A stretch of DNA of 64,000 bases from Ignavibacteriota bacterium. Its GTDB lineage: Bacteria; Bacteroidota; Ignavibacteria; Palsa-1295. Made by a program: the position numbers and the translations under genes. The stretch spans positions 2,414-66,413 of the forward strand of contig CAWCCK010000003.1 of the NCBI GenBank assembly GCA_963794025.1. The letters are read 5' to 3'. This document shows, piece after piece, positions 14,021 to 48,488 of this stretch; position 1 is the first letter of the stretch, and each line of letters starts with the position of its first letter. Below the pieces are notes generated by a model. That model saw nothing but the letters and a program-made list of their open reading frames with translations, was not told the DNA's origin and did not search any database.

Positions 14021-14620
14021 AAAAATCTCGGTATCCTCGGCGGCACGTTCGACCCTCCGCATCTCGCGCATCTCATTTCGGGTGAAATGGCGGTGGAAGC
14101 ATTCGCGTTGGATAAACTATTTTTCGTTCCCGCACATATCCCGCCGCATAAACCGATTGGCCAAATTACAGAGACAAAACATCGGCTTGCTATGACCGAA
14201 ATTGCTATTCGCGGCAATGAAAAATTCCAGGTTTCCCGCATCGAGTTAGATCGCTCTGGCCCATCGTACACGCTTGACACCTTGCGCGAAATCCAGCAAC
14301 AGTGGGCGCCGGAAAAGATAGTTCTCTTCATAGGTCTCGATCAGCTTGCGGTGTTTAATGCATGGCATGAGCCGGAAAAGATATTTGAAATGGCTAACAT
14401 TGTCGTGATGGCGCGGCCTTCGCATTCGTTCGATGAAATAGATCCTGCTCTGATGAAACGAGTGAAGATATTACCTATTCCACTGATGGACATTTCTTCG
14501 ACCGATATTCGCGCGCGCGTTCGAGCCGGGAAATCGATTCGCTACTTAGTTCCGGATGAGGTTGGGGAAGTACATTGCGGAACATCGGTTGTACCAATAG
14601 CTTTCAAGATGTCATCCTGA
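14006..14620 (+). CDS. nadD: Nicotinate-nucleotide adenylyltransferase (alternative start at 14018).
   Basis: GILGGTFDPPHLAHL (HxGH nucleotidyltransferase motif) and the …ISSTDIR… motif. The stop codon lies inside the MITE-like repeat. Confidence 0.85.
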   Translation: MVQTMKNLGILGGTFDPPHLAHLISGEMAVEAFALDKLFFVPAHIPPHKPIGQITETKHRLAMTEIAIRGNEKFQVSRIELDRSGPSYTLDTLREIQQQWAPEKIVLFIGLDQLAVFNAWHEPEKIFEMANIVVMARPSHSFDEIDPALMKRVKILPIPLMDISSTDIRARVRAGKSIRYLVPDEVGEVHCGTSVVPIAFKMSS

Positions 14621-14756
14621 GCGGAGTTTTTCTCGACGCAAGGAGAGAAAAACGGAGTCGAAGGATCTCATGCAGTTTGGCTCAGTGGTGAATGTCCGGA
14701 GATCCTTCGACTACGCAATCCGACGCTTCGCGTCGAATTGCTCCGCTCAGGATGAC
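14611..14756. mobile_element. MITE-like repeat, family A copy 1 (146 bp). Terminal inverted repeats GTCATCCTGAGCGGAG…CTCCGCTCAGGATGAC; conserved core GGAGTCGAAGGATCTC.
   Basis: Three copies in the window (14611-14756, 17452-17594, 21850-22029) with the same termini and core. Each can fold into a long hairpin. Confidence 0.75.
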
Positions 14757-14773
14757 AGGTAAAATAAGACCCC

Positions 14774-17328: not shown

Positions 17329-17451
17329 GGATTAGTCTCCGTTGTCTGTGATTTTGACGGCTTTCGCCGGAAATGGTTTAATAATGGTACGAACTTCGAT
17401 TAGGCTAAGAAGGTTCGTGAGCGAAGTGTAATAAATGAGGCGAATATAAAC

Positions 17452-17594
17452 GTCATCCTGAGCGGAGTTTATCTCGACGAAGCAGAGATAAACGGAGTCG
17501 AAGGATCTCCGGACATTCATCACTGAGCTAAACTGCATGAGATTCTTCGACTCCGCAATTCTCCCTCCGGTCGAATTGCTTCGCTCAGAATGAC
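17452..17594. mobile_element. MITE-like repeat, family A copy 2 (143 bp; right terminus slightly degenerate).
   Basis: GTCATCCTGAGCGGAGTTTATCTCGACG…GGAGTCGAAGGATCTCC…CGAATTGCTTCGCTCAGAATGAC. Confidence 0.7.
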
Positions 17595-17632
17595 ATGATA
17601 AAAACGACCATCAAATGAAATATTGCTGAATG

Positions 17633-18825: not shown

Positions 18826-18841
18826 AGTAATGAGTGGATGA

Positions 18842-18911
18842 GTACCAAGTACCAAGTACCAAGTACCAAGTACCAAGTACCAAGTACCAAGTACCAAGTA
18901 CCAAGTACCAA
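18842..18911. repeat. Heptanucleotide microsatellite (GTACCAA)x10, directly followed by an inverted repeat GTACCGAGCACCGACCAACTCGGTAC.
   Basis: Direct read. Lies in the 5' leader of purS, between pssA and purS. Confidence 0.9.
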
Positions 18912-18957
18912 GTACCGAGCACCGACCAACTCGGTACTCGGTACTCATCACTTGGTA

Positions 18958-19767
18958 CTATATGCCGAACGTTGATTGCTCTTCGTGATCGAGCGCTTCT
19001 TCGTCGAGTAATGCTGCGGCGCGGCGTTCACGAATGAGCCGGCGTGTTCGTTCATATAAAGAGCGAATCACTCCGTACAATACGAATAGAACAAAAAGCG
19101 GGAAGATCGCGCTCCCGCGTGTAACGATCGCAAGGATCAGCCCGATAAAATAAATCCCAAATTTATACGGATGCGCCAGAATGTTCCGCTTCGAGGGTTT
19201 CGGCACTACATCGTATTTCACCGTGCTGACCATCAGCAGCGAGGCTCCGATCGCTACGACCCACATCCAGGGATCTTCCAAACGCTGATCCATAGGAAGC
19301 GCGAGATGGTGGAACATGATGTACGAAATGATGAGAATGGCGGAAGAAGGGGTAGGAAGACCGCGAAAATAATCTTTATCGAAGCCGACAAGCTGCGTAT
19401 TGAAACGCGCAAGGCGGATCGCGCCGCAAATGGCAGGAAGCGCAGCGAGTAAAAGTCCGGTGCCGGGAAATTGATAGAAAAAAGCTTTGTACAGGATCGC
19501 GCTTGGCGCAACGCCGAAGGTCACGATGTCCGCCAGCGAATCGAGTTCCACGCCGAACTCGCTGGAAGTATGCGTCAGGCGCGCCATTGCGCCATCGAGC
19601 AGATCGAAGATTCCGCCGATAACGATATACCATCCGGCGAGAATAAAATCCCTATCGTCGCCATGCTTACCATCGAGCGCAGTGACGATCGCGGCAAACC
19701 CCGAAAAGAGGTTCATCATCGTAAACAAGCTCGGGATGATCGAGCGGGCGCGGCGTCGGGTGCTCAA
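18958..19767 (-). CDS. pssA: CDP-alcohol phosphatidyltransferase, probably CDP-diacylglycerol--serine O-phosphatidyltransferase.
   Basis: DGxxAR…G…D…D motif (DLLDGAMARLTHTSSEFGVELDSLADIV). Polytopic. Confidence 0.65.
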   Translation of the reverse strand: MSTRRRARSIIPSLFTMMNLFSGFAAIVTALDGKHGDDRDFILAGWYIVIGGIFDLLDGAMARLTHTSSEFGVELDSLADIVTFGVAPSAILYKAFFYQFPGTGLLLAALPAICGAIRLARFNTQLVGFDKDYFRGLPTPSSAILIISYIMFHHLALPMDQRLEDPWMWVVAIGASLLMVSTVKYDVVPKPSKRNILAHPYKFGIYFIGLILAIVTRGSAIFPLFVLFVLYGVIRSLYERTRRLIRERRAAALLDEEALDHEEQSTFGI

Positions 19768-21642: not shown

Positions 21643-21764
21643 GAGATGGTGGTTTTATAATAGAGGCCGGGTCAAAGTGATGCACTTTATCGGCCTCAGG
21701 ATGGTACACTAATTTGTTAACTTCGTATCAAACCGGAATTGGGTAAGAAGAATTACTCGTAATA

Positions 21765-22133
21765 AATTAGGAATGGAGAATTAGGAATGGAGAATTAGAA
21801 ATTGAGAATTAGGAATTAGGAATGTGGATGATCCGATAAAGTCCAACCTGTCATCCTGAGCGGAGTTTGTCACGACGCGCATCGACCACGATGCTTGGAG
21901 TGAGGAACGGAGTCGAAGAATCTCATGCAGTTACGCTTAGTGGTGAATGTCCGGAGATCCTTCGACTCCGCAATCCGATGCTTCGAGCATCGTCGACGAT
22001 GCGGGTCGAATTGCTCCGCTCAGGATGACATCTTAATCTAATCTGTGTCAGCCATTCTTAATTCTTAATTCTTAACTCTTAATTCTTAATTTATAAATCC
22101 CCTATTCTTCATTCTTAACTCTTAATTCTTCAT
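21765..22133. repeat. Composite repeat: family A MITE copy 3 (21850-22029, 180 bp) flanked by inverted simple-repeat arms (AATTAGGAATGGAG)n on the left and (ATTCTTAATTCTTAACTC)n on the right.
   Basis: Direct read. The arms are roughly reverse complements of each other, giving a large potential cruciform between recJ and the 7TMR-HD gene. Confidence 0.7.
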
Positions 22134-22176
22134 TGATAAGGACACCTTTTGCCATACTGCATTAGTTGCAAGCTGG

Positions 22177-27024: not shown

Positions 27025-28131
27025 TTGACACGCCTTGTTTCTGTAATAGTGAGTTCATATTCATCCATGAAGCACGAAAGCCATAAAGTGAAGCCCACTC
27101 GCCCGTTCGCGTTCCTCGCCGCGTGCCTATTTTTCTTCATCCTTTATACTTCATCCTTCATCCTTGTCGCAAAAGCGCAGGATGTAAATGAATCGGCGCG
27201 CGCGGCGCTTTCGGATATTTTGAACAAGCCGCTTAGTCCGCGGGCGGCGGCGTTGGGAAACACGTTCGTCGCGATGCCGAACGACCCGAACACCATCTTC
27301 AGCAATCCCGCCGCACTTTCGAGCATCGTCGTCACGGATTCCGACCGGATGAACGATATTTCCGTAAGCTACACGCATTACGTGCTCGATATTAACGAGG
27401 GCGCGGTCGTGTATGAGCATCCGGTTCCCGAGAACATTCTCTTTGCTGGGAATTTTGCTGCCGGCGTACAGTATTTCGATGGAGGAACGTCCACGCAAGC
27501 CGATAACACCGGCCAAACGCTCGGAACCTTTAACACGGAAGACGTCGCATTCCTGCTCGCCTATTCCAGTACCGCTTCGAACGGCTTGCATTATGGCGCG
27601 ACGGCGAAAGTAGTTAGTTCCAGCCTTGTTTCGGGTTCCTCGGTACAGAATTATGGCGCGACATGGATCGCTGCCGATCTTGGTCTCTATTACGAATGGG
27701 CGAAGGAACGCATGACCTTCGGGCTTTCCGCGCTCAATTTGGGCGGGGAACTTTCGAAGTACGACAGCGTCGGCGAACCTGTTGGGCCGGACGTTCAGCT
27801 TGGCGCGACCATCAAGCCGGAGCATTTGCCGCTTACCCTGGGACTCGATTTCCATAATCTCACTCGCAATCTTGAAGGACACAATCTCTTCTATGCCTTC
27901 GATGATTTTTCCATTGGCGCCGAGTTCGCGATGGGTAAAGTGGTGCGTTTGCGGTTTGGATACGAGAACGAACTGCGCCACGAACTTAACGTTCCCGCGG
28001 GCAACGGATTCGGCGGGTTCTCCGGCGGCGTAGGACTGCACATCAAACGCTACGACATCGACTTCGCCATCGACGACGAAGGCCCGGATTTCACTCCCTT
28101 CGTAAGGTTTGGATTGAGAACGGATTTGTAG
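27025..28131 (+). CDS. Outer-membrane beta-barrel protein, PorV/PorQ/PorP-like (possible T9SS-associated).
   Basis: Signal peptide. N-terminal motif …AALGNTFVAMPNDPNTIFSNPAALS… and alternating beta-strand pattern. Low-certainty family call. Confidence 0.35.
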   Translation: MTRLVSVIVSSYSSMKHESHKVKPTRPFAFLAACLFFFILYTSSFILVAKAQDVNESARAALSDILNKPLSPRAAALGNTFVAMPNDPNTIFSNPAALSSIVVTDSDRMNDISVSYTHYVLDINEGAVVYEHPVPENILFAGNFAAGVQYFDGGTSTQADNTGQTLGTFNTEDVAFLLAYSSTASNGLHYGATAKVVSSSLVSGSSVQNYGATWIAADLGLYYEWAKERMTFGLSALNLGGELSKYDSVGEPVGPDVQLGATIKPEHLPLTLGLDFHNLTRNLEGHNLFYAFDDFSIGAEFAMGKVVRLRFGYENELRHELNVPAGNGFGGFSGGVGLHIKRYDIDFAIDDEGPDFTPFVRFGLRTDL

Positions 28132-28178
28132 CCGAATGTGGGTTTCAAGTCCACGGATTCCCCTCGGGCCGTTCCGAT

Positions 28179-28582
28179 GGAGCTTTTGGCGCAACGCCCC
28201 CTCACCCGATTCCGTCTGCGACGGAATATCCCTCTCCCCACTACGTGGGGAGAGGGTGTAGAGCTATCACATTGGGGAATTAAATCTTTTGCAACGGCTG
28301 GGGAAACCAGTTTAGCTCCGGCAGGAGCGTAATCGTTGTAGCCGTGGGTTTCAACCCACGGTGTGATGACCAAATATTTTTCATAGCTCCGGCAGGAGCG
28401 TCATATTTGTAGCCCCGTGCGTAAGCGCGGGGTTTTGCGTTTGGTGTAATGCAAAAGCTCCAGAGGAGCGGCATATTCCCCGCCGGTAACATGCTGCTCC
28501 GGTGGAGCTTTTGGCGCAACGCCCCCTCACCCGATTCCGTCTGCGACGGAATGTCCCTCTCCCCACTACGTGGGGAGAGGGT
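28179..28582. repeat. Array of about five structured ~75-bp units, each beginning with a conserved quasi-palindromic AGCTCCGGCAGGAGCG-like motif followed by a different hairpin. First and last units (28179-28257, 28504-28582) are 79-bp near-identical direct repeats.
   Basis: Direct read. Unit hairpins: CCCTCTCCCCACTACGTGGGGAGAGGG, CCGTGGGTTTCAACCCACGG, GCCCCGTGCGTAAGCGCGGGG. No ORF support. Confidence 0.6.
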
Positions 28583-32665: not shown

Positions 32666-34265
32666 TTGAATGGTGGAATGACTAAAGGCAATATTCTCTG
32701 GGTCGATGACGAGATCGACCTGCTGCGACCGCATATTATGCTGCTCGAAGGGCGCGGCTATACCATTCGCACTGCTCTGAGCGGTGAAGATGCGCTTGTT
32801 ATCGCTTCCGAGCAGCCTGTCGATCTGGTTTTTTTGGATGAGAATATGCCGGGTATGGGCGGTTTGGAAACGCTCGAACGGCTGAAAGCGGTGCGTCCCG
32901 AAACGCCCGTCGTGATGGTGACGAAATCGGAAGAAGAAGACCTGATGGAGCAGGCGATCGGGAAGAAAATTTCGGATTATCTGACGAAACCCGTCAACCC
33001 GACGCAAGTGCTGCTTGCGGTGAAGAAATTTTTGGAGGGCCGGCAAATTGTGAACGAAGCCGTCTCGCGGGATTACACGCAGGAATTCGCGCGTATCTCG
33101 CTCGACCTGATGAATGCTTCGACTGCGAAGGACTGGACGGAACTATATGCGAAGATCGTCGGCTGGGAAATGGAATTTGACGAGCATACGGGACTTGGTT
33201 TGAAGCAAACACTGCTCGATCAGAAGCGGGAAGCAAATGCAGAGTTCGGGAAATTTGTCGAGCGGCATTACAAAGACTGGGTCAATACGATCTATGTGGA
33301 ATCGAATGCGGCGAACCGGCCGGCGATGTCGCCGGATATAGTCGAGCAATGGGTGCTGCCGGAACTGCAATCGGACGCGAAGCAGAATGTGGTATTTTTC
33401 GTGATCGACTGCATGAGGCTGGATCAGTGGCTGATCATGGAAGCGGAACTCCGTAACCTGTTTAAGATCACGCGGAACTATCATTTTGGTATTCTTCCGA
33501 CAGCCACGCCATACGCGCGGAATGCGATCTTTTCGGGAATGTTCCCATCGGAATTCGGGAAGCTGTATCCGAACATGTGGTCATCGAAGGATGATGACGA
33601 GAGTTCGCTGAATCGGGATGAAGCCGATATGCTGCATAAGTTATTGGATCGAAAGCGCATTAAATTGCGGCAGGAGATGAAGTATATTAAGATCATCGAC
33701 CGCGATTATGGCGCCGGTATCGCGCAGAATATCTCGAATCAGGCGAAGAACCATTTCACAGCCATTGTGGTGAACTTTGTTGACATGCTTGCACATACGA
33801 GAAGCGATTCGCCGATCTTAAAAGAGATCGCGCCGGATGAAAGTGCGTATCGTTCCCTTACGCGGTCGTGGTTCATGCATTCGAGTTTATATCGATATGT
33901 TCAAATCGCTGGCCTCGGTGCCGAATTTGAAGATCGTCGTATCGACGGATCACGGTTCCATCCGCAGTTTGCGAGGCGCGAAAGTGATCGGCGACCGCGA
34001 GACCTCGACCAGCCTGCGCTACAAATATGGCCGGAACGTGAAAGCAGAAGAAAAGCAAGCGATGATCATCAAGCATCCGGAAGAGTATAAACTTCCCGTT
34101 CGCGCGAACGCAACGAACTATATCATAGCAAAAGAGGATTATTATTTCGTCTATCCAACCGACTACCACAAATACCTGAATTACTACCGCGATTCGTTCC
34201 AGCATGGCGGCATTTCGATGGAAGAGGTGATATTGCCGGTGGTGACGATGGAACCTAAATCTTAA
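32666..34265 (+). CDS. porX: PorX-like response regulator: CheY receiver fused to a PglZ / alkaline-phosphatase-like domain. Apparent frameshift at about 33880-33900.
   Basis: Receiver motifs (ILWVDDE…DLVFLDENMPGMGG…KP). PglZ region split between ORF 32666..34090 and ORF 33837..34265 (…KIVVSTDHGSIR…QHGGISMEEVILP). Confidence 0.75.
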
Positions 34266-34280
34266 TCCTGAATTATATCT

Positions 34281-35228
34281 GTGAATTTCCTTCCCTCCGA
34301 TTTCGAATCCGTTCCCTGCGATCTGTGCGGCGCCGATGCGCCGGATGTTCGCTATCGTAAAAATGGTTTTACGATCGTGCAATGCTCAAGCATCGTCGGC
34401 GATGCTAAATGTGGAATGGTATATACCAATCCGCGGCTGAAAGGCGAGAAGATCGGTGAGCTGTACGATGCCGATTATTTCAAGGGACATGGGTTCGATA
34501 AAAGCATCGATTACGTCGGCGATGTAGATGAGTATGGCAAGCAGAAAAGCGATTATACGCTGAATGATTGGGATGCGGATACGATCAAATCCATGATTCA
34601 ATCCGCCTCTCCCCCAACCCCTCTCCCTGCTGGGAGAGGGGAGAAAAAATTGTTAGAGATCGGTTGCGGGACGGGAGTTTTTCTTGCGAAAGCGCGGGAG
34701 CATGGGTTCGATTGCTCCGGGTTGGAACTTTCGAGTTACGCTGCGGAATTTGTTCGCAAGATGGGAATTCCGGTAGAGACGAAAGCGATCGAAGATGCAA
34801 ACTTCCCGGATAACACATGGGATGTGATCGTGATGCGGGAAGTAATCGAGCATTTACCGCATCCGATGGAAGCGCTGCAAACGATTCATCGCTGGCTGAA
34901 ACCCGGCGGCGTGCTATTCATGGCAACCGGGAACTACGATTGCCCGGAGCGCAAGCTGCGCGGCTCCGATTGGTTTTATTTTATGCCGGAAGGACATCTC
35001 TATTATTTCTCCAACCGCACCATGACGAAATATCTACAGAAAGTGGGATTTCGAACGGTCAACGTAACCAATCAGGGTGATAAGCTAATGGAATTCCTAC
35101 GGAAATACGGTATCTTAGAAGCGGGGTCAGCCAAGCCTCGTAACATTTTCAAGCGATTGGTGTTCTACAAAATACGCGCGATCAATCATTTTATTTCGAG
35201 CGGAATGCGTATTTATGCGATCAAGTAA
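34281..35228 (+). CDS. Class I SAM-dependent methyltransferase carrying an in-frame hairpin-element insertion (SPPTPLPAGRGEK).
   Basis: Zn-ribbon-like CDLCGA…C start. Motif I LLEIGCGTGVF. Methyltransf_11/23-like downstream. Confidence 0.8.
   Translation: MNFLPSDFESVPCDLCGADAPDVRYRKNGFTIVQCSSIVGDAKCGMVYTNPRLKGEKIGELYDADYFKGHGFDKSIDYVGDVDEYGKQKSDYTLNDWDADTIKSMIQSASPPTPLPAGRGEKKLLEIGCGTGVFLAKAREHGFDCSGLELSSYAAEFVRKMGIPVETKAIEDANFPDNTWDVIVMREVIEHLPHPMEALQTIHRWLKPGGVLFMATGNYDCPERKLRGSDWFYFMPEGHLYYFSNRTMTKYLQKVGFRTVNVTNQGDKLMEFLRKYGILEAGSAKPRNIFKRLVFYKIRAINHFISSGMRIYAIK
34605..34645. repeat. GGGAGAGGG-family hairpin element CGCCTCTCCCCCAACCCCTCTCCCTGCTGGGAGAGGGGAG, inserted in frame in the methyltransferase gene.
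   Basis: Perfect stem CCCCTCTCCC/GGGAGAGGGG. Related copies at 35600-35660 and inside the 28179/28504 repeats. Confidence 0.65.
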
Positions 35229-35231
35229 ATC

Positions 35232-38200
35232 ATGCGGTCGGTTTTAATCTTCTCTGTTATTATTGCGGGAATTTTCGTTGGCAGTCAGAGTTTCGGCCAA
35301 ACGATGGTTCCCGCTATTCCGGAGAAACAGGGCGTTATTCTCCTACGCGTAAGTTCCTCGCTCGATAGCGCACTGGACGCTATGTTCTATGCTACACGCC
35401 CGCTTGGCGACCCCACATTTGCACATAGCGAAATTAATCTCGCAGTTCTCAGTAACGATAGCGCAATACGCCGCTTGCTCGGCTTACCAAGCGGGTTGCA
35501 TGGGCTTCAACTCAAGCCGTTCATTCCTACGCACAGTGTGGCCTTCGAAGGTATTCGGGAACGTTCCAATCCACAGCTTTTTGCTCATGAGGATGTTGCC
35601 GCCTCTCCCCCAACCCCCTCATCGTCGGCGATGCCTCCCTGCTGGGCGAGGGGGCTTTACTAACTTCTGAGAATAATATTTCCCATTGGTTCCTGCTGTT
35701 TTATTCCGATTCTATTTCAGGCGATCGGGCATCGGAACTCGTTCGGAAATCCTCTTTCATACAAATAGCAGAACCAGAATATATCCGTCACTCATGCACG
35801 GTGCCGATCTATACGCCGAACGATCCAGATATTAGCCAGCAATATTCGCTTACGCTCATGAATGTTTTAGAGGCGTGGGACGTCGTTCGGTGCGATTCGA
35901 CGATGATCGTAGCTGACGCAGACGTTGGCACTGACTGGCTTCACGCCGATCTCGAGGCATCGATCTATCAAAATCCTGGTGAGATGGGAATAGATAAGAA
36001 CGGGAACAATAAACGTTACAATGGCATCGATGACGATAGCGACGGCTTTATTGACGATTGGCACGGCTGGGATTTTGGCGGAACATACGGCACCACACCC
36101 GATAACGATGCCCGTCCCGGCTTGGGAACCGACGGTAACGTTGTCATGCACGGTACGCAAACAGCGGGAATTTTTGCCGCTACTGGTAATAACGATAATG
36201 GCATGGCCGGCGTTGCGTTCGGCGCGAAGATCATTCCCATCAAGATCAGTGACGATGAGGGGAATATCGAGTTTGCATTTCAAGGCGTGATCTATGCAGC
36301 CGATCTGCATGCGCGCGTAGTCAATTGCTCGTGGGGTGGCACGGGCCGTTCGGACGCGGAGCAAGACGTCATCAATTATGCGTATGCAAAAGGCTGTGCG
36401 GTGATAGCTGCTGCCGGAAACTCTGGTAACGATTCCCCCTTCGAAGATTTTTATCCGGCGGCGTACGATCATGTGCTTTCCGTCGCGGCAGTCGATCCCA
36501 ACAGCAACATCGGGAGCTTTTCCAATTTCAATACGCATGTGGATGTATCCGCTCCCGGAGTTGCGATCCTTAGCACTATTCCGACGCTCGGCAGCACTAC
36601 GGATAATAGTTACATCTCCGATGAGAATGACGCCAGTGGCACAAGCTTCGCAGCACCGAACGCGGCGGGCGTCGTAGCGCTCGTGTTACAGCAGTTCCCA
36701 AGTTTAACGGTGGGCCAGGCGATGGAGCAAGTTCGGGCGACAAGCGATCCAGTAGAAGCGGTCTGGAACAACAATACCGGCGTTGTCACACCGGTCGATA
36801 GTACACGGCTCTACTACGAAGGACGTGGCGCAGTCAATGCATTCCAAGCCGTTACCGATACGAATACGTTTTCTGCACGTATCGATAGCGTTACCCTTGA
36901 AGATCATAACAGCACTGGAACGTTTGCTCCCGGCGAGAGCGGCGGCATTGTTATTCACGCGATGAACTATCTGAAACCGCTCCAGCAGCTTAAGGCGCGG
37001 ATCGAAGTGGTGAACGGCGCAAATTATGTGACGCTCCAACAGACGATTGTTCCCTTCGGCTCTGTGGGAACGCTCGATGAGGTCTCGAATAATTCGACTG
37101 CGTTCCAGATCGCGATAGCCGATAGCACTCCGGTTAATACAAAGATCCTGATCCGGGTGTTCTTCTTCGATTCCGTTGTTGGATACACCGAAGATTACGA
37201 TTATTTCAGTTTTGTGGTGCAGCCATCGTATCTCGATCTGAACGCGAATAATCTCACGGTAACTTTTTCTTCCATTGGAAGCTTGGGATACAACGATGTG
37301 CTCAACAATGAAGAAGGTTCCGGCTTTTTGTGGCGCAATGCTCCGGATTCCATCGCGCCTTTTAGTCAATCACTTTTGTATGAAGGTGGGCTGATGGTCG
37401 GTACCGATACCGGTCATGTGGTCGATGTGGTGCTCAGCGAAGATGGAGTAACAGCGGATGAAGACCTCACGCCAACTCAACTCACGCATTACGTTGAGCC
37501 GCCGGATCATGCAAATGCCGCGCAGGAACTTGCATTCGCTCTCACGGATGATCTTGCCGATTCTGACAAGATCGGGCTTCGCGCTACGTGCCAGGCGTAT
37601 GCGTTCACGCAAGGTCTGGCGGCGAACGCGATCGTAGCACGGTATGTATTTCTTAGCGAGCCTGGAAGCGCGCTTTCCTTAACAGATACCGCTGCTGCCG
37701 CGCTTTTTCTCGATTGGGATATTGGACTTTCCGGCTCCAATAATTTCACGGTGTTCGATACAGCAAGCTCGACCGCAATCTCCTACTGTGCCTATCCGGA
37801 TAATCCTTATATTGGAATGAAACTGCTTTCTCCGCTCCCGCCCGGCGCGGCGCTTAATTATTACGCCATTATGAACAATGGCTCCCAGGGTCCGATCGAC
37901 ATTTATTCGGCCTATTCAAAGCGCAATAAATGGACGACCATGACGAATTTTAATAGTTCCGCCGGAGCTGGTGACATATCCCATACGTTCGGCCTCAAAA
38001 AAATGCCGATGCGATCTCAAGGTTCTGTCGAGATGACGGTCGTGATCGCGCTGGCGGAGAACGCAGCAGTATTGCAGCAAACCATTGCTGAAGTGGATAG
38101 CCTTTGGTTCGGAATAGCTGGCGTTGTGCCCGAAGCGCTCGCACCTTCAAGCACGTTAGAAGTGTTCCCAAATCCTTTTCATAACACGCTGCATATTGCG

Positions 38201-38383
38201 TGGGATGCGACCGGGCCAGCGCACCTCACGATCTACGATGCGCTTGGCCGAACGATCGTTTCCAAAGAGGTGACGAGCAGCCAATTCGATTTCTCGCCGC
38301 CCGAAATTCCATCCGGATTTTATACCATCGACGTATCCATTGGCAGTACACATTTGCGAAGACAAGTGATCGCGTCAAATTAG
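35232..38383 (+). CDS. Subtilisin-family (S8) serine peptidase with T9SS C-terminal domain. The signal/propeptide part (35232..35663) and the catalytic part (from 35801; frame open from 35591) are in different frames across a hairpin-element insertion.
   Basis: Signal peptide and propeptide-like start. …IQIAEPEYI… propeptide end. Catalytic triad contexts DDDSDGFIDD(D), HGTQTAG(H), GTSFAAPNAAG(S). C-terminus …LEVFPNPFHNTLHIAW…. Confidence 0.75.
35600..35660. repeat. GGGAGAGGG-family hairpin element (longer variant) GCCTCTCCCCCAACCCCCTCATCGTCGGCGATGCCTCCCTGCTGGGCGAGGGGGC at the S8 frame break.
   Basis: Same 5' half as the methyltransferase copy. Contains C-homopolymers where a 1-nt miscall would change the frame. 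Confidence 0.6.
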
Positions 38384-40971: not shown

Positions 40972-43887
40972 ATGAAAACTTGGAATCGATTCTTTTTTAG
41001 GGGTATTAGCGCGCTGGCTATACTTTTCCTTGTGACAGCGTTCGCGGCAAATGCTTCGGCGCAGTACGCTTTACTTATGCCTAAACAGACGTTTAGCACG
41101 AATGCTCTGCCGAGCGGCTGGTCGTGCGGCGATTGGGGCAGCGAGGACGTTAACCAAGGAATTCCATATTGGTTTTGGAATTCAACTAACCCGAGCGGCA
41201 CCGGTGGTTGTGCCATGGACGATATTTGGGACTATAACCCCGATGCGATAACCACCCCTACGGTGAACGCAAGCATGTACACCGCTCCAGGCGATTCCGT
41301 GTGGGTGGATTTCGATTTCTTCTGGGAATATAGCGGAAATGATTATGATTATCAGTATTATTATGGTTATACGCTCGATGAATTCGAGATCGACGCTAAT
41401 TCGGATGTGTTAGTGAGCGGTACAACCGATCAATTGTACACGTATTACAATACGAACGATTACAACTATGATGTAGCTCAGTCCTCCTCTTCGGCATGGC
41501 AGCACTATCACCTTTTAATTCCTGTTGAAGATCGCAACTCTGAGTTGCAAATAAATTTCTTATCTAATTACGATGAGTATGGCGGCCCTGGTTTAACGGA
41601 TGCCGCGATCACCAATGTGACGATCACAGCGTACCCGCCGCCACCGGTTCCTGAGCTTTCGCTGACCCCGAAGACGCTCAGCTTCGGTACTGCTACGCCG
41701 AACGGGCCGGTAACGCTTTATGCGAACGTGCAGAACGTAGGCGCATTGCCGCTTAGTATTTCAAGCACCAGCTTTGGTGGAGCGAATGCGTCCTATTATT
41801 CCGTCGTTAGCGGCCCCAGTGAAGGAACGCTTATCCAGCCCGATAGCTCCGTTCAATACGGTATTCAATTCCAGCCATTTTCGAACGGTGTGCTCACGGG
41901 CACGTTTACCGTCGTGACCGATGGTCAGGATTCGGGAACGCAGACCATTAATTTGACAGGCATCGGCGCGGTTCCGGATGTTTCGTATAGTTCCAATAGG
42001 ATGTTCCAGGGAGTAAATATTGAATTGACGCATACTTCCGCAGTACAATATCTGTATGTGAACTCGACAGGTCACGGTCCGCTCACGGTCAATAGCGTAT
42101 CATTCTATGGCCTCGATGAAAGGGATTACAATATTGTTTATCAGCCTGACGGCCCGATCTCGCCTGGCGGCGTGGATTCGATCGGCGTTCAATTTACGCC
42201 GAGTGTAGAGGGCTTGCCGGATGCACACATGGTGATCAATTCTACGGGAATAAATAACCCCTCCGACACGGTGCTGATGTACGGCGTAGGAATTCTTCCG
42301 CATTTAGCGATTGATAGCGCAAAATCCTGGCCGCTTCCTACTACCGTGAATTTCGATTCGGTGCAGCTTGGCTCCAGTAGCTGCCTGACCGTTCAGTTGA
42401 CGAACCCCGGTTCAGACACTGTCGCCATCGAGCAGAATTACTTCGAGAGCGCCGATCCCGATTTCACTCTTACGCCGCTCACCGGGCGCGATACACTGAT
42501 CCCGCCGGGCGGTTCGCAGATCATTACGGTGTGCTTCTCGCCGGTTCAGCAAGGAACGCGGCTTGCAGCGCTTCGCATCCGAACCAACATTCCGAATACC
42601 TTAACGAAGCCCGTGCAGGATACAAGCCAATTCACGGTTAACTTCGTTGGCAAAGGCGTGCCGACCGGCAAGCTTTTGATCACCGGCCCATTGACGAACG
42701 GCACTACGCTCATTGATAAATCCGTCTGCGTAACCGATACCTTCTGGAATACCGGCGATGCCGCGCTTACCATCGATAGCGTAGCTATCACCGGCGCGAA
42801 TGCGGCTGATTTTACGGCTTCGTACACCATCCCGCTTCCGTTCACAATGGCTGCAAATTCCATCCAAACCTTCAGCGTTTGCGCTGACCCAGCCGATACC
42901 GGCACGGAAACAGCAGTCCTGACGGGCTATGGAACGAGCAACGAAAGCCCGGCTATTGCCACGCTCGCGCTTGTGGTTTATGGGCAGTCCTTGAACGATA
43001 CTGCTGTTGTTACGCAGGCATTCCCCGGGAACTGCGGGCTGGATACGGAAGTAGTCACGGTTACGAACACCGGTAATGTGCTCGCAACGTATGTTGCAAG
43101 TATTTCCGGCGGTACGAACGCAAGCGATTTCGTCGTGACGCCTATTTCCTCGCAGGAAGTATCTGGCGGCGGCACAGCCACCTTCACGATCGTATTTACA
43201 CCTTCGACAACCTCGCTCGAAACAACGGATCTGATCGTCACGGGCGGCGTCACTACAACGATCCCGCTATCGTCCACCGGCAGCGTCGCTGTGATCAATG
43301 GTTCCGGCACTGCGGCTGTAGCCACGCCAAGCGGCCCGGTCGAGAACTTTACCGATACGCTGATAAACACGGGAACCTGCACCTGGACGCCCGGCGTGCC
43401 GGTATTGCCACAGGGTTCACCGTTCGCGTATCTAAATGGCGGCATGGCTCCGATCCCGGCTGGCGGGACGGGTATGCTCACCTTCACGTTTACGCCACCC
43501 TCAGAATCCGGCGAATACTCTGCGGCTGTTACATTCCCAAATCAGACGGGAATATCCATTCCAACCGCCAATGACAATGTGTTCGGGGTCGTATCCTCAG
43601 CGGATGTTGCATCCTCGGTTTTCAACGGCTTCAGTCTCGAACAGAATTATCCGAATCCGTTCAATGAACAGAGCAATATCGAGATCACACTGCCGGTCGC
43701 AAGTTTGGTACATCTGACCCTCATCGACGTGTCGGGACAGGTTGTCGAAACGCTGCTCAACCAGCATTACGACGCCGGTTCGTTCGAGGTGACGCTGGAT
43801 GCAACCGGGCTTGCAAGCGGAACCTATTACTATCAAATGACCGCCGGGGACGTCACGCTCACCCGGCAGATGGTCATACTGAAGTAA
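40972..43887 (+). CDS. Large secreted cell-surface protein: repeated beta-sandwich ('choice-of-anchor D' / ASH-like) domains and a T9SS C-terminal sorting domain.
   Basis: Signal peptide. Repeats such as LSFGTATPNGPVTLYANVQNVGALPLSIS. C-terminus LEQNYPNPFNEQSNIEITLP…GTYYYQMTAGDVTLTRQMVILK. Confidence 0.7.
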   Translation: MKTWNRFFFRGISALAILFLVTAFAANASAQYALLMPKQTFSTNALPSGWSCGDWGSEDVNQGIPYWFWNSTNPSGTGGCAMDDIWDYNPDAITTPTVNASMYTAPGDSVWVDFDFFWEYSGNDYDYQYYYGYTLDEFEIDANSDVLVSGTTDQLYTYYNTNDYNYDVAQSSSSAWQHYHLLIPVEDRNSELQINFLSNYDEYGGPGLTDAAITNVTITAYPPPPVPELSLTPKTLSFGTATPNGPVTLYANVQNVGALPLSISSTSFGGANASYYSVVSGPSEGTLIQPDSSVQYGIQFQPFSNGVLTGTFTVVTDGQDSGTQTINLTGIGAVPDVSYSSNRMFQGVNIELTHTSAVQYLYVNSTGHGPLTVNSVSFYGLDERDYNIVYQPDGPISPGGVDSIGVQFTPSVEGLPDAHMVINSTGINNPSDTVLMYGVGILPHLAIDSAKSWPLPTTVNFDSVQLGSSSCLTVQLTNPGSDTVAIEQNYFESADPDFTLTPLTGRDTLIPPGGSQIITVCFSPVQQGTRLAALRIRTNIPNTLTKPVQDTSQFTVNFVGKGVPTGKLLITGPLTNGTTLIDKSVCVTDTFWNTGDAALTIDSVAITGANAADFTASYTIPLPFTMAANSIQTFSVCADPADTGTETAVLTGYGTSNESPAIATLALVVYGQSLNDTAVVTQAFPGNCGLDTEVVTVTNTGNVLATYVASISGGTNASDFVVTPISSQEVSGGGTATFTIVFTPSTTSLETTDLIVTGGVTTTIPLSSTGSVAVINGSGTAAVATPSGPVENFTDTLINTGTCTWTPGVPVLPQGSPFAYLNGGMAPIPAGGTGMLTFTFTPPSESGEYSAAVTFPNQTGISIPTANDNVFGVVSSADVASSVFNGFSLEQNYPNPFNEQSNIEITLPVASLVHLTLIDVSGQVVETLLNQHYDAGSFEVTLDATGLASGTYYYQMTAGDVTLTRQMVILK

Positions 43888-43914
43888 GAGTCTTTTTTCA
43901 TAGGATGTAGTCTT

Positions 43915-43945
43915 TGAAAGGGCTTCTCATGCGAGAAGCCCTTTC
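43915..43945. terminator. Intrinsic terminator hairpin GAAAGGGCTTCTCATGCGAGAAGCCCTTTC + T-run.
   Basis: Perfect 12-bp stem. Near-identical copy after the third paralog (48452-48488). Confidence 0.7.
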
Positions 43946-45429: not shown

Positions 45430-48421
45430 TTGCGAACATTTAACAACCCACAAACACCCATGAAAAATTGGAACAGCTCCTTTAGGTCATTATCTTTGGC
45501 GCGCGCTATTTTTAGCGTGATCCTACTCAGTACCCTCTCCTCAGGCGCGTTCGCGCAGGCCCGCGTGAATAAGTACACGATGACGACGCCCACACTTACG
45601 TGGACGGAAATTTCGGGTACCGGTGTCGAGTTTGCCGGCGGCCCAATTCGTTATTATAGCTCCTGCCAAACCACACTTCCGTTCGCGTTTAATTATGACA
45701 ATACGGCCTTGGCGGCGAATAGTGAACTTTTCTTATGGGAAGGAACGGTTCAGTTGGCCGGTAACACTAATACCAATTATTACGAAGCCCAGTATGCTGG
45801 CACTTCGTCCCTTCCTGGCACGATCTGCTACGCCGCGACCTATGGCTTTATCGGTTCCGGCGACCTTGGCGGAAATGCTTACTACCAGCTAACGGGCACA
45901 GCCCCGAACCGCGAGTTCACCCTGGAAATGCAAAATTGCCACAGCTTTGGCACTGGAAGCAATACGGTCTGCTCCGTTCAGATCCATTTCTTTGAAACGA
46001 CGAACGTCATCCAAATTCAATATCAAACTCACGGTACATCTGCATGGTCCGATGAGCCAATGACCATAGCTTTGGATGGATTTACTTCACCCTCGTTCGC
46101 AGAAGTTACCATTGCTACCAATCAGAGCAGCTCCCCTTCCACGGATTATCAATTTGCTTCCGCTCCTCCACAGGAACTTGCACTTGAGACCGTTCCTCCG
46201 GTGTTCCCGAAGACGCTGAACTTCGGCACGACAAATAACCAGACTCCCGTTACGATGTCGGTTACAGCCACAAGCGTAGGCAAGACCGGAAGTGCGCCGC
46301 TTACGATCAGTGGATATAGCTTCACCGGTTCCTCCTATTTTACAATGACCAGTGCCCCTCCGGTTATCGGCTCCACGCTCACTGCAACCCCGGTGACCTA
46401 TACTTTCAAGTTCCTGCCGTTCACGAACGGTAATCTTTCTGCCACATTCACGCTGACCACGAACGGCGTGGATTCCGGCTCGCAGACTATTACTCTGAAT
46501 GGTATCGGCGCGGTGCCATCAGTCTCCTATAGTTCCAATGCGATGTTCCGAGGCGTCAATACCGAAGTGACGGATACCTCCGGTGTGCAGTATCTTTATG
46601 TCAATGCCACAACTCCACCCGGCGGCGGTCCGGTGGTGGTCAACAGCGTGAACTTTATCGGAGTCGATGGTGGCAAAGCGTATTTTATTACGCATCTGCC
46701 TTCCGGTCCGCTTGCACCGGGCGCCGTAGATTCGATCGGCGTTCGCTTCGTACCCGATCTCGAAGGCGAGCCGGACGCGCACATGGTCATCAACACGACC
46801 GCGCTGAATCTCCCCTGGGATACGGTCGGGATGTACGGCGTGGGAATCCTTCCACATCTCGCCGTCGATAGCGCAAAATCGTGGCCGCTCCCGACGACGG
46901 TGAATTTCGATTCGGTGAAATTAGGATCGGATTCTATTATTACGGTACAACTGACCAATCCGGGTTCGGATACCGTGGCCATCGAGCGTAATTTCTTCGA
47001 GAGCAACGACCCTGATTTCACGATCGTACCGGTTACCGGCAGCGATACGCTTATCGCTCCCGGCGGTATGGAGAATATCCAGATCACGTTCACGCCTACC
47101 CAGCAAGGGACACGCGTAGCGGAAATTCGTATTCGCACGAACATCCCGCATACCGAGACGAACCCTGCTCGGGATACCAGCCAATTCATCATCAATGTGA
47201 TTGGCATTGGCGTACCGAACGGAAAGCTTTCCGTTACCGGCCCTGCAACTAATGGCAATGTGTCCGTGGGTAAATCGGGCTGCGTAACCGATACGCTTTG
47301 GAATACGGGTGCGGCTTCGCTTACGGTGAACACCCTGACGGTCACCGGCACGAACGGCACCGACTTTACGGTCAGCGGATTTACACCAGGAACGGTTTTA
47401 GCACCAAATTCAAGCTCGCTGTTCCAGGTGTGCGCCGACCCCAGCGATACCGGAGCAGCATCTGCGCTCTTGACGGCTAACGGCACGAGCAGTGAAAAGC
47501 CGATCAGCGCCACGCTGAATCTCGGCGTGTATGGCTTACTCATCGCCGATACGACGATCGTCGTCCAACCGTTTGCCGAAGGAAGCTGCGGAACGGATAC
47601 GATGATCGTCACCGTGACGAACACAGGTAATGTTTCGGAATCGTACACAGGTTCGATTCCCCTGAGTCCGAACTTCACACTGCTTGGCTCCGGCACCACG
47701 CCGCTGACCTCGGCGGGCGGCGTCGATACCTTTCTGGTACTCTTCACTCCGACGAGCGGAACGGCTACGGGAATGTTGAACGTCATCAGCGCAGCCGGTT
47801 CGAACAGCATTCCGCTCTCGGCATCCGGCGGGGCGGCTACGATTGCCGGTACGCAGGCTGCACCGATAACATCCATCGGTAATACATCGGCTAATTTTAC
47901 GGTGATGGTCAATAACACCGGCACCTGCCCGTGGACATCGGGCACACGAACGGACGATCCGCAATTCACGTATCGTGAGCGGAGGCCGGTACGATCGCGG
48001 CTGCCGGCAGCGCACCGTTCGATGTTCACACTCACACGCCAAATGTGGCAGGCGGAGCCTCCTATCCTGTAACATTCCTGAGTGCAACGGGCGCAACAAC
48101 CGCTGCTCCGGCAGTAACGATCACAGCGCATTGGATGGTGTCGCTGCAACCTCGGCCTCGAACGGCTTTAGCCTGAATCAGAATTACCCGAATCCGTTCA
48201 ACGAACAAAGCACTATCGAGATCACGCTGCCCACAGCCAGCTTGGTGCATTTGAGCATCATCGATGTGCAGGGACAGACGGTCGAGACACTGCTGAACCA
48301 GCATTACGATGCCGGCACCTTCGAGGTCACACTCGATGCAACAGGGCTTGCCAGCGGCACCTATTATTATCAGATGTCAGCGGGCAGCGTAACACTCACA
48401 CGCCAGATGGTCATCGTGAAA
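45430..48421 (+). CDS. Large T9SS cargo protein, paralog of 40972..43887. Two apparent frameshifts near the 3' end (about 47995 and 48125); the T9SS C-terminal domain is retained in ORF 47975..48592's frame.
   Basis: Central >60% similarity to the paralog (…HLAVDSAKSWPLPTTVNFDSV…). The reading continues in frame 3 (AEAGTIAAAGSAPFDVHTHTPNVAGGASYPVTFLSATGATTAAPAVTITAH). Frame 2 then gives …NGFSLNQNYPNPFNEQSTIEITLP…QMVIVK. Confidence 0.6.
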
Positions 48422-48451
48422 TTAAGAGTCTTTTTCATGGTTGTAGTCTTT

Positions 48452-48488
48452 GGAAGGGCTTCTCGAAAGAGAAGCCCTTTTTTTGACC
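48452..48488. terminator. Intrinsic terminator hairpin GGAAGGGCTTCTCGAAAGAGAAGCCCTTTTTTTT.
   Basis: Duplicated together with the paralogous cargo gene 3' end. Confidence 0.7.

Follow-up and report, generated by a model that had tools for sequence, protein, structure and literature searches.

A class I S-adenosylmethionine (SAM)-dependent methyltransferase gene in the window (by which we mean the whole 64,000-nt stretch of contig CAWCCK010000003.1, from an Ignavibacteriota bacterium) contains a short G/C-rich hairpin within its coding sequence (CDS), which raises the question as to what kind of element this is and how a protein-coding gene comes to contain it. The original prediction placed a 41-bp hairpin in frame directly ahead of motif I, and the sequence, the open reading frame (ORF), and Pfam all bear this out; Methyltransf_23 matches residues 118-260 of the protein (E = 2.7e-33), the hairpin encodes ASPPTPLPAGRGE directly ahead of the motif I sequence LLEIGCGTG, and the in-frame reading across the element is ...QSASPPTPLPAGRGEKK-LLEIGCGTG. 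This element, 38-41 bp in length, very probably belongs to the G/C-rich intrastrand-triplex repeats known as BoxC, PIT, or TM, one copy of which was inserted or copied into a linker of the protein in the ancestor of a small clade. The family itself is already known; the in-frame position within a protein loop is the modest departure, and the main value of the locus is as a tractable case for following gain, loss, and exchange. To our knowledge, these repeats have been known for thirty years without an established function or spreading mechanism.

The plus-strand letters from 34604 to 34645 are CGCCTCTCCCCCAA-CCCCTCTCCC-TGCT-GGGAGAGGGG-AGAA, with a C-rich tract (34604-34617) preceding a hairpin (34618-34641) that has a perfect 10-bp stem and a 4-nt loop (Table 1). 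The stem/loop/stem pattern has a single match in the window (34619-34640), with a shuffle expectation of 0.00, and the 9-mer GGGAGAGGG occurs six times compared with 0.19 expected. As RNA, the hairpin folds at -25 kcal/mol (z = -2.9), a value equaled by none of 200 shuffles, and as DNA it folds at -12.7 kcal/mol on either strand (z = -3.8). The minus strand, which is the template strand of the gene as well as the G-rich, triplex-capable strand, reads CCCCTCTCCC-AGCA-GGGAGAGGGG-TTG-GGGGAGAGG, and can be described as three blocks: a pyrimidine arm, a purine arm pairing with it, and an adjacent G-rich tract that would fold onto the purine arm as a third strand. The computed folds include Watson-Crick pairs only, with triads counted by rule using a manual register and a scan; the methyltransferase copy has 10 Watson-Crick pairs and nine consecutive allowed triads (seven G.G-C and two A.A-T), with a second loop of 3 nt. 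A pyrimidine-motif triplex, with the C-rich leader as a third strand covarying with the arm, was also considered; the leader remains (C/T)CACCCCC with different arm sequences, and placing a purine-motif triplex on the G-rich strand gives a better fit.

Repeats of this form were characterized by Holder et al. 2015 (PMC4666352) as TM or TM_ECO, having earlier been named BoxC (Bergler 1992) and then PIT, for potential intrastrand triplex (Hoyne & Maher 2000, 2002). In the general ITxF definition, a Y arm, an R arm, and a third strand are consecutive (G.G-C, A.A-T, or T.A-T triads), with stems of 6-15 nt, at most one mismatch, and loops of 1-6 nt; the published TM_ECO pattern is 5'-CCCTCNCCC N3-6 GGGNGAGGG N3 GGGNGAGGG-3', with 9-nt stems, and the census of it gives 3610 occurrences in 262 proteobacterial genomes (PMC4666352). 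As a single strand in vitro, TM_ECO forms a stable purine-motif triplex (PMC4666352). We found that the methyltransferase copy conforms to the general definition, that a relaxed pattern matches at 34607-34640 on the minus strand, and that the copy aligns block for block with the E. coli K-12 TM_ECO sequences in Table 1 of PMC4666352, the blocks being nearly identical and in the same sequence along the strand (CCCTCTCCC-loop-GGGAGAGGG-short loop-GGG(T/A)GAGGG). An ITxF-like scan (8-nt stems, up to one mismatch, a first loop of 3-8 nt, and a second loop of up to 30 nt) picks out three copies in the window, with no hits in any of 20 shuffles. Other likenesses to BoxC/PIT/TM are that the repeats are dispersed and multi-copy (four in 64 kb, with more in L001, L003, L006, L009, L043, L046, L167, and L168), that they have no linked transposase, that they are occasionally found as inverted pairs, here in relatives L001 and L003, and that they show local indel polymorphism, the motif being lost or changed between related genomes; for TM_ECO, too, strain comparisons link the motif to local deletions and rearrangements (PMC4666352). 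There are also differences. The host is of the Kapabacteria/Ignavibacteriota lineage, whereas the TM_ECO census is of Proteobacteria; the methyltransferase arms have a length of 10 nt and a register that is shifted; in some copies here, loop 2 or an arm contains a nested mini-hairpin; and two of the four window copies, those in the methyltransferase and S8 protease genes, lie in frame within CDSs, whereas the copies of E. coli K-12 are all intergenic, which is a reported property of E. coli and not a structural one.

Related hairpins had been proposed in the S8 protease gene and in repeats at 28179 and 28504, and these are indeed relatives, with the three-block architecture common to all of them; the S8 copy was detected through its identical leader and the other three through the ITxF-like scan. 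Each of the two intergenic copies has an extra hairpin, ATTCCGTC-GCA-GACGGAAT, in loop 2; the upstream copy folds at -25.4 kcal/mol (z = -6.0), and L001, L043, and L167 have syntenic copies. L167 and L168 both have an orthologous copy at the S8 linker, and the S8 gene of L167, at 1030 aa, is intact and reads through its copy in frame (ASPPNPLSPPSEGA); the other ten S8 orthologs with a readable linker have no element. Nineteen bases (CCGCCTCTCCCCCAACCCC, the second site being at 35599-35617) are the same in the leaders of the methyltransferase and S8 copies; one of them is a T that corresponds to an A in the orthologous copies of L043, L046, and L167, and this sharing suggests gene conversion or other exchange between the two copies within this genome.

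Comparison of orthologs, using a 42-sequence protein alignment together with recovered ortholog DNA, indicates that the segment is an insertion relative to the wider methyltransferase family. The gene has 330 homologs with a top identity of 93% (with names, where given, of Kapabacteria, Ignavibacteriota, or Bacteroidota), and the public collection holds an identical protein as P0121. In the alignment, the stretch from ...IKSM(L/I) to LLEIGCG varies in length, and among orthologs with at least 75% identity there are five or more linker states. L043 (93% amino acid and 86.5% nucleotide identity) has an identical 24-nt hairpin; L046 (86% amino acid identity) has CTCCTCTCCC-TGCT-GGGAGAGGAG, in which the two substitutions (ACC to ACT and GGG to GGA) are silent and compensate for each other; L001 (85%) has CCCCCCTCCTAT-13 nt-ATAGGAGGGGGG at the same codon position; and L003, L006, and L171 (75-81%) have CCCCCTCCTCT-loop-AGAGGAGGGGG with loops of TGGC, GGTC, and TAGC. 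Only a leader-like remnant is present in L167 and L168 (about 92%) and in L002 and L004 (83%), the difference between L167/L168 and the element-bearing L043 being exactly eight codons (24 nt), and the 90%-identity protein cluster containing P0121 has three linker states side by side. The C-rich tract ahead of the hairpins is CCTCTCCCCCAA in the window and CCTCACCCCC(GG/AA) in L043 and L046. The segment is missing from the close orthologs L044 (88%) and L045 (84%), where the linker is only ...GGA(K/R), and from all orthologs with 75% identity or less (other Kapabacteria and Melioribacteraceae); the same peptide in distant orthologs, which the original prediction had named as the finding that would count against an insertion, was thus not encountered. 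The prediction that the insertion would be unique to this genome did not hold, as L043 and other related species carry the hairpin. Because several species share the element, and because the same codon holds other variants, this is an old site with fast turnover rather than a recent private insertion. The L001 methyltransferase hairpin resembles one at L003:3201-3235 and that of L003 resembles one at L003:3117-3141, which favors replacement or conversion by resident family members over slow divergence in place.

All six frames of the methyltransferase copy are free of stop codons (a single TGA, in one frame, is present in the canonical GGGGTGAGGG version), and the insert changes the length by a net multiple of three; together these account for survival of the gene. 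In an AlphaFold2 model (pTM 0.83), residues 113-118 have a pLDDT below 50 and lie between a helix (94-105) and a strand (122-128), and the insert falls in the only low-confidence stretch of that region; in this model, the insert is translated as a Pro/Gly-rich loop in a tolerant, length-variable surface linker between the helix and strand beta-1. No host function is implied for the element. The same linker in other species (L008, L169, and L170) contains unrelated tandem repeats, and it is therefore generally permissive and a hotspot for length variation. These repeats, at L008:10268-10393 and in the L169 and L170 linkers, include a 24-nt unit present twice (RRPTARDA x2), GGGGTCCGG-type repeats, and CTTCATCC present three times. 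We also note a third perfect hairpin in the methyltransferase gene at 34354-34375 (ATCGTAAAA-ATGG-TTTTACGAT, 9 bp), within the conserved coding sequence for RYRKNGFTIV; its 3' arm varies in relatives, and it is probably there by chance.

The element is not confined to these genomes. A metagenome scan requiring exact arms with any 4-nt loop matched at least 120 contigs, with GC fractions of 0.40-0.75, and most of the listed hairpins have either CCCTCACCCC or, on the opposite side, GGGGTGAGGG next to them. An adjacent tract with at least 9 of 10 allowed triads accompanies 90 of the 125 copies (72%) among the matches listed; at random positions of these contigs, the corresponding figure is 33 of 2400. 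When the long ORFs covering these copies were searched against Pfam, one copy was found to split a CoA_transf_3 domain in L098 (profile positions 2-229 before the element and 228-366 after it), and in L163, a PKS/PUFA-synthase-like protein has two copies located between its FabA domains; in most other ORFs covering copies, no domain was matched or the first domain starts only after the element. Copies in frame within genes are accordingly uncommon (at least 3 of 125 among the matches listed), yet are not limited to this lineage. It follows that these repeats add Pro/Gly-rich protein loops in several phyla, as a minor but real source of length variation and of the odd low-complexity peptides that turn up in annotations.

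The most plausible sequence of events is that a copy was inserted or copied into the methyltransferase linker in the ancestor of a small Kapabacteria species group, and that this was followed by 24-nt hairpin-sized deletions, replacement by genome-resident variants, exchange with the S8 copy, and gain of a 15-18-nt mini-hairpin. The architecture of the family, the in-frame position, the polymorphism among close relatives, the several copies with the sequence they have in common, the nesting of a smaller hairpin, and the presence in other genes and phyla are shown directly; we infer the direction of the events (gain and then losses), the conversion between copies, and the manner of spreading. 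Spreading would most likely occur through replication-associated template switching or microhomology-guided copying and not through a transposase, and microhomology or template switching is hinted at by the 3' arms in L001, L003, L006, and L171, which run into the ancestral GGGGGAGC. In-frame genic copies are useful in this regard, because coding constraint freezes the flanks such that each gain, loss, replacement, or exchange can be resolved to a single codon, a readout that is difficult to obtain in intergenic DNA; the methyltransferase and S8 sites already show hairpin-sized deletion, variant replacement, a 19-nt tract common to copies 1 kb apart, and nesting.

Several observations weigh against assigning the element to the BoxC/PIT/TM family as an inserted copy. 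The strict TM_ECO pattern matches 8 of the 168 fetched loci but has no matches in the window, which we attribute to the 10-nt arms of the methyltransferase copy and to its shifted register, with A positions displaced by one. Holder et al. 2015 (PMC4666352) detected a stable triplex neither in duplex DNA nor in vivo, and the triplex is for that reason to be regarded as a potential and not a demonstrated state; they also report that TM_ECO copies in E. coli K-12 are always intergenic and are without mobile-element association. Comparison of filled and empty alleles gives neither a target-site duplication nor a clean junction, and the linker alignments are ambiguous. In a neighbor-joining tree, the window-type alleles are scattered among element-free ones with bootstrap values mostly of 40-66%, and at this low support one gain with many losses is inseparable from several gains. 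Finally, linker permissiveness alone accounts for part of the pattern, as illustrated by the repeats in L008, L169, and L170.

Other explanations must be weighed against the insertion of a family member, and one is that the hairpin arose in place by local template switching, with the ancestral G-rich Gly-Gly-Ala stretch GGGGGAGC templating a complementary arm upstream, in which case the dispersed family either resembles it by convergence or arises in this way throughout. The linkers of element-free alleles and outgroups do end with GGA(R/K) codons (as in L045, with GCAGGGGGAGCGCGA, and in L044, L007, and P0014), the 3' arms in L001, L003, L006, and L171 continue straight into GGGGGAGC(A/G)CGA, and the arms are perfectly complementary across species, including the two-sided change in L046, for which quasi-palindrome correction would suffice without selection. 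However, the hairpin is accompanied by a C-rich leader that fits the family consensus (CCTCACCCCC in L043 and L046), near-identical hairpins including their loops are present at unrelated loci (the L001 methyltransferase copy and L003:3201), and 19 exact nucleotides are common to the methyltransferase and S8 copies; since leader, loops, and these 19 nt are shared between copies, a purely local origin is insufficient, and we consider it quite unlikely. We view with almost as much doubt the idea that the hairpin is selected at the mRNA level, either for a ribosome pause between the zinc-ribbon part and the Rossmann domain or for transcript stabilization, an explanation that is compatible with an origin by insertion. 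It would fit with the strong RNA fold, with the identity of the 24-nt hairpin between the window and L043 despite 86.5% nucleotide identity of the genes, with the synonymous and compensatory pair of changes in L046, and with the L003, L006, and L171 hairpins, which keep their stems as their loops vary. The compensatory event is nonetheless a single one, hairpin-templated repair or gene conversion can equally keep arms perfect, and several close relatives (L044, L045, L167, L168, L002, and L004) are without the hairpin, which argues against an essential role. A promoter and terminator scan gives no such signal at the methyltransferase element, and PIT elements in E. coli are without promoter or terminator activity (summarized in PMC4666352).

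Two further explanations appear very improbable, and to a similar degree. An ordinary ancestral Pro/Gly-rich linker under protein-level selection, in which the hairpin is incidental, would agree with the variable and Pro/Gly-rich linkers of many orthologs and with the loop predicted by AlphaFold2, but it is contradicted by the presence of the same nucleotide motif in intergenic DNA of the window and in at least 120 unrelated contigs, by the distant orthologs that are without the segment, and by conservation at the nucleotide level that extends to synonymous sites. Similarly, the element or the 18-nt mini-hairpin encoding SIVGDA (see below) could be an artifact of assembly or polishing, given that two neighboring genes are frameshifted (PglZ near 33893 and S8 near 35612) and that the SIVGDA insertion is seen in a single assembly. 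Against this, the methyltransferase triplex copy is found in at least three independent assemblies or sources (ENA, Logan, and JGI), the mini-hairpin core occurs at other loci in three other assemblies, and both mini-hairpin insertions are exact multiples of three. Insertion of a BoxC/PIT/TM-type repeat thus accounts for the locus better than any of these.

The element can also be compared with other classes of small repeats. The original prediction drew an analogy with Rickettsia palindromic elements (RPEs), and the in-frame behavior is indeed shared, these being palindromic repeats found in frame in unrelated genes and translated where the fold tolerates them; the element itself is not RPE-like, and has the three-block BoxC/PIT/TM architecture instead. 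As far as the summary in PMC10969869 describes them, RPEs are about 100-150 bp, are restricted to Rickettsia, and encode a conserved peptide (Ogata et al. 2000), and the methyltransferase element is set apart from this description by being 38-41 bp, G/C-rich, three-block, and distributed across phyla, and in a host that is, judging from homolog names, of Kapabacteria/Ignavibacteriota. Nor does it resemble a miniature inverted-repeat transposable element (MITE), as the allele comparison gives no target-site duplication and the element is a single hairpin plus tract. Repetitive extragenic palindromic (REP) and REPIN sequences are similar in being short GC-rich hairpins dispersed in intergenic repeat nests, whereas the triplex-type element is without a GTAG head, at the methyltransferase site included, has a third block, and was not found flanking a REP-associated tyrosine transposase (RAYT). 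A RAYT link was considered and rejected: the Y1 transposase of L167 is flanked by GTAG-type REPs and not by triplex motifs, and a tblastn search with this transposase finds nothing in the window. That gene, within a repeat nest at L167:3560-4780, encodes a 123-aa Y1_Tnp (RAYT-like) protein and has inverted REPs of the GTAGCC type on both sides. Genuine GTAGCC-headed REP-like hairpins (28100-28450) also adjoin the intergenic copies in the window, in a nest at 28100-28480 (for example, GTAGCCGTGGGTTTCAACCCACGG, plus GCTCCGGCAGGAGC hairpins). Rfam returns no window matches at the gathering threshold and only chance-level matches over the methyltransferase element; a sub-threshold match to the Acido-Lenti-1 RNA at 28385-28432 on the minus strand (26.5 bits compared with a gathering threshold of 37, E = 0.008) overlaps REP-like hairpins.

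The methyltransferase gene has a second insertion, which the original prediction had missed. This is an 18-nt mini-hairpin that adds SIVGDA in frame and changes the second CxxC of the zinc ribbon to Cx8C; it folds at -7.5 kcal/mol (z = -3.8) and is in none of the other 41 of the 42 aligned homologs. Exact matches to its 14-nt core are at only two sites in the window, the 15-nt extension (CATCGTCGGCGATGC) having been read from the sequence, and the second of these is nested in the S8 copy, where it interrupts the pyrimidine arm and is missing from the orthologous L167/L168 element. The core is also present at L043:7769, where it stands alone, and at L167:7076 and L168:1328, in each case in loop 2 of an intergenic triplex motif, and loop 2 of the L006 methyltransferase copy has an analogous CGGATGA-TCGG-TCATCCG. 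The mini-hairpin is reminiscent of the small dispersed repeats (SDR) of cyanobacteria, which Elhai and colleagues reportedly described in 2008 as being 21-27 nt long; both are tiny palindromic units that are nested in repeats and genes, keep the frame, and have no known mobilizing enzyme, with the mini-hairpin being shorter, of other sequence, and in another host. It is conceivable, although we think it rather unlikely, that the triplex repeats and the mini-hairpin GCATCG-TCGG-CGATGC are actively copying, transposase-independent units linked to replication or repair, which exchange sequence and colonize linkers in multiples of three across phyla. If so, few mobile DNA units as small as the mini-hairpin would have been described, and genic copies, with flanks fixed by coding constraint, would give the first clean filled and empty junctions from which a mechanism could be read.

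The S8 gene, directly downstream of the methyltransferase gene, is split into two frames at its element, with frame 0 ending at the stop at 35661-35663 and frame 2 starting at 35654 at the latest. Compared with L167, the window S8 element has three differences, which are +3 (GCC), +15 (the mini-hairpin), and -1 (CCAAAC to CCAAC, at 35610-35614), and because only the -1 difference breaks the frame, the frameshift results from the missing A, which lies in the A-run of the leader; the mini-hairpin is ruled out as its cause. With that A restored, the gene would read ...PLIVGDASLLGEG..., in which the IVGDA frame is the same as in the methyltransferase. The split could reflect a pseudogene or a fault in the assembly. 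A PglZ-domain response-regulator gene (32666-34265) upstream of the methyltransferase gene is also in two frames, with one extra base at 33885-33900 (about 33893); the site is GAGTTTATATCGATATG in the window compared with GAGTTTGTA-CGATATG in four relatives, and the extra base, which is outside a homopolymer, reflects a genuine frameshift or else a mistake in the assembly. In several relatives, a toxin-antitoxin pair (NTP_transf_2/HepT or HicA-like) lies between the PglZ and methyltransferase genes (L045:9314-10004, L046:152-502, and the P0123 and P0008 contigs), and is absent from the window.

Table 1. Positions of the methyltransferase element, its parts, and related features in the window
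Feature	Position	Strand	Basis or remark
Class I SAM-dependent methyltransferase CDS, 315 aa, with N-terminal CxxC...CxxC zinc ribbon	34281..35228	+	ORF and Pfam
C-rich leader CGCCTCTCCCCCAA (plus-strand letters)	34604..34617	-	Complement TTG-GGGGAGAGG is loop 2 plus the putative purine-motif third strand
Pyrimidine arm CCCCTCTCCC	34618..34627	+	Sequence, pattern match, RNA and DNA folds
Loop TGCT	34628..34631	+	Same loop in L043 and L046
Purine arm GGGAGAGGGG	34632..34641	+	Sequence, pattern match, RNA and DNA folds
Methyltransferase-copy minus-strand oligonucleotide sequence, 5'-CCCCTCTCCCAGCAGGGAGAGGGGTTGGGGGAGAGG-3'			
Mini-hairpin AGCATCG-TCGG-CGATGCT, 18 nt, in-frame insertion SIVGDA	34389..34406	+	Alignment, fold
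Nested 15-nt mini-hairpin core CATCGTCGGCGATGC in S8 copy	35620..35634	+	Exact match
Mini-hairpin sequence, GCATCGTCGGCGATGC			
S8 peptidase gene with Por secretion tail, two frames split at element	35232..38383	+	tblastn with L045 ortholog; Pfam Peptidase_S8, Por_Secre_tail
Second genic triplex-motif copy, in S8 protease gene	35600..35654	-	Same leader as methyltransferase copy; pyrimidine arm broken by mini-hairpin
Intergenic triplex-motif copy, loop 2 with nested hairpin ATTCCGTC-GCA-GACGGAAT (28209-28227)	28198..28254	-	Repeat search, scan, fold
Second intergenic copy of same composite element	28523..28579	-	325 nt downstream, 90% identical over 110 nt

Repeats of other kinds are also present in the window. 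Three MITE-like copies of about 150 nt (14610-14757, 17450-17595, and 21850-22030), one of them inverted, have 17-nt terminal inverted repeats (TGTCATCCTGAGCGGAG...CTCCGCTCAGGATGACA), and 14-nt tandem units (AATTAGGAATGGAG and ATTCTTAATTCTTA) flank the third of these. Tandem arrays are located at 13284-13634, 18827-18959, 21751-21820, and 22047-22139, and include 39-nt units repeated seven times and the heptamer AGTACCA repeated many times and then followed by its inverted complement. Two segments of about 1.8 kb (42140-43945 and 46694-48480), 4.5 kb apart and approximately 74-86% identical, both end in a strong terminator-like hairpin (GAAAGGGCTTCTC...GAGAAGCCCTTTC), and look like a tandem gene duplication.

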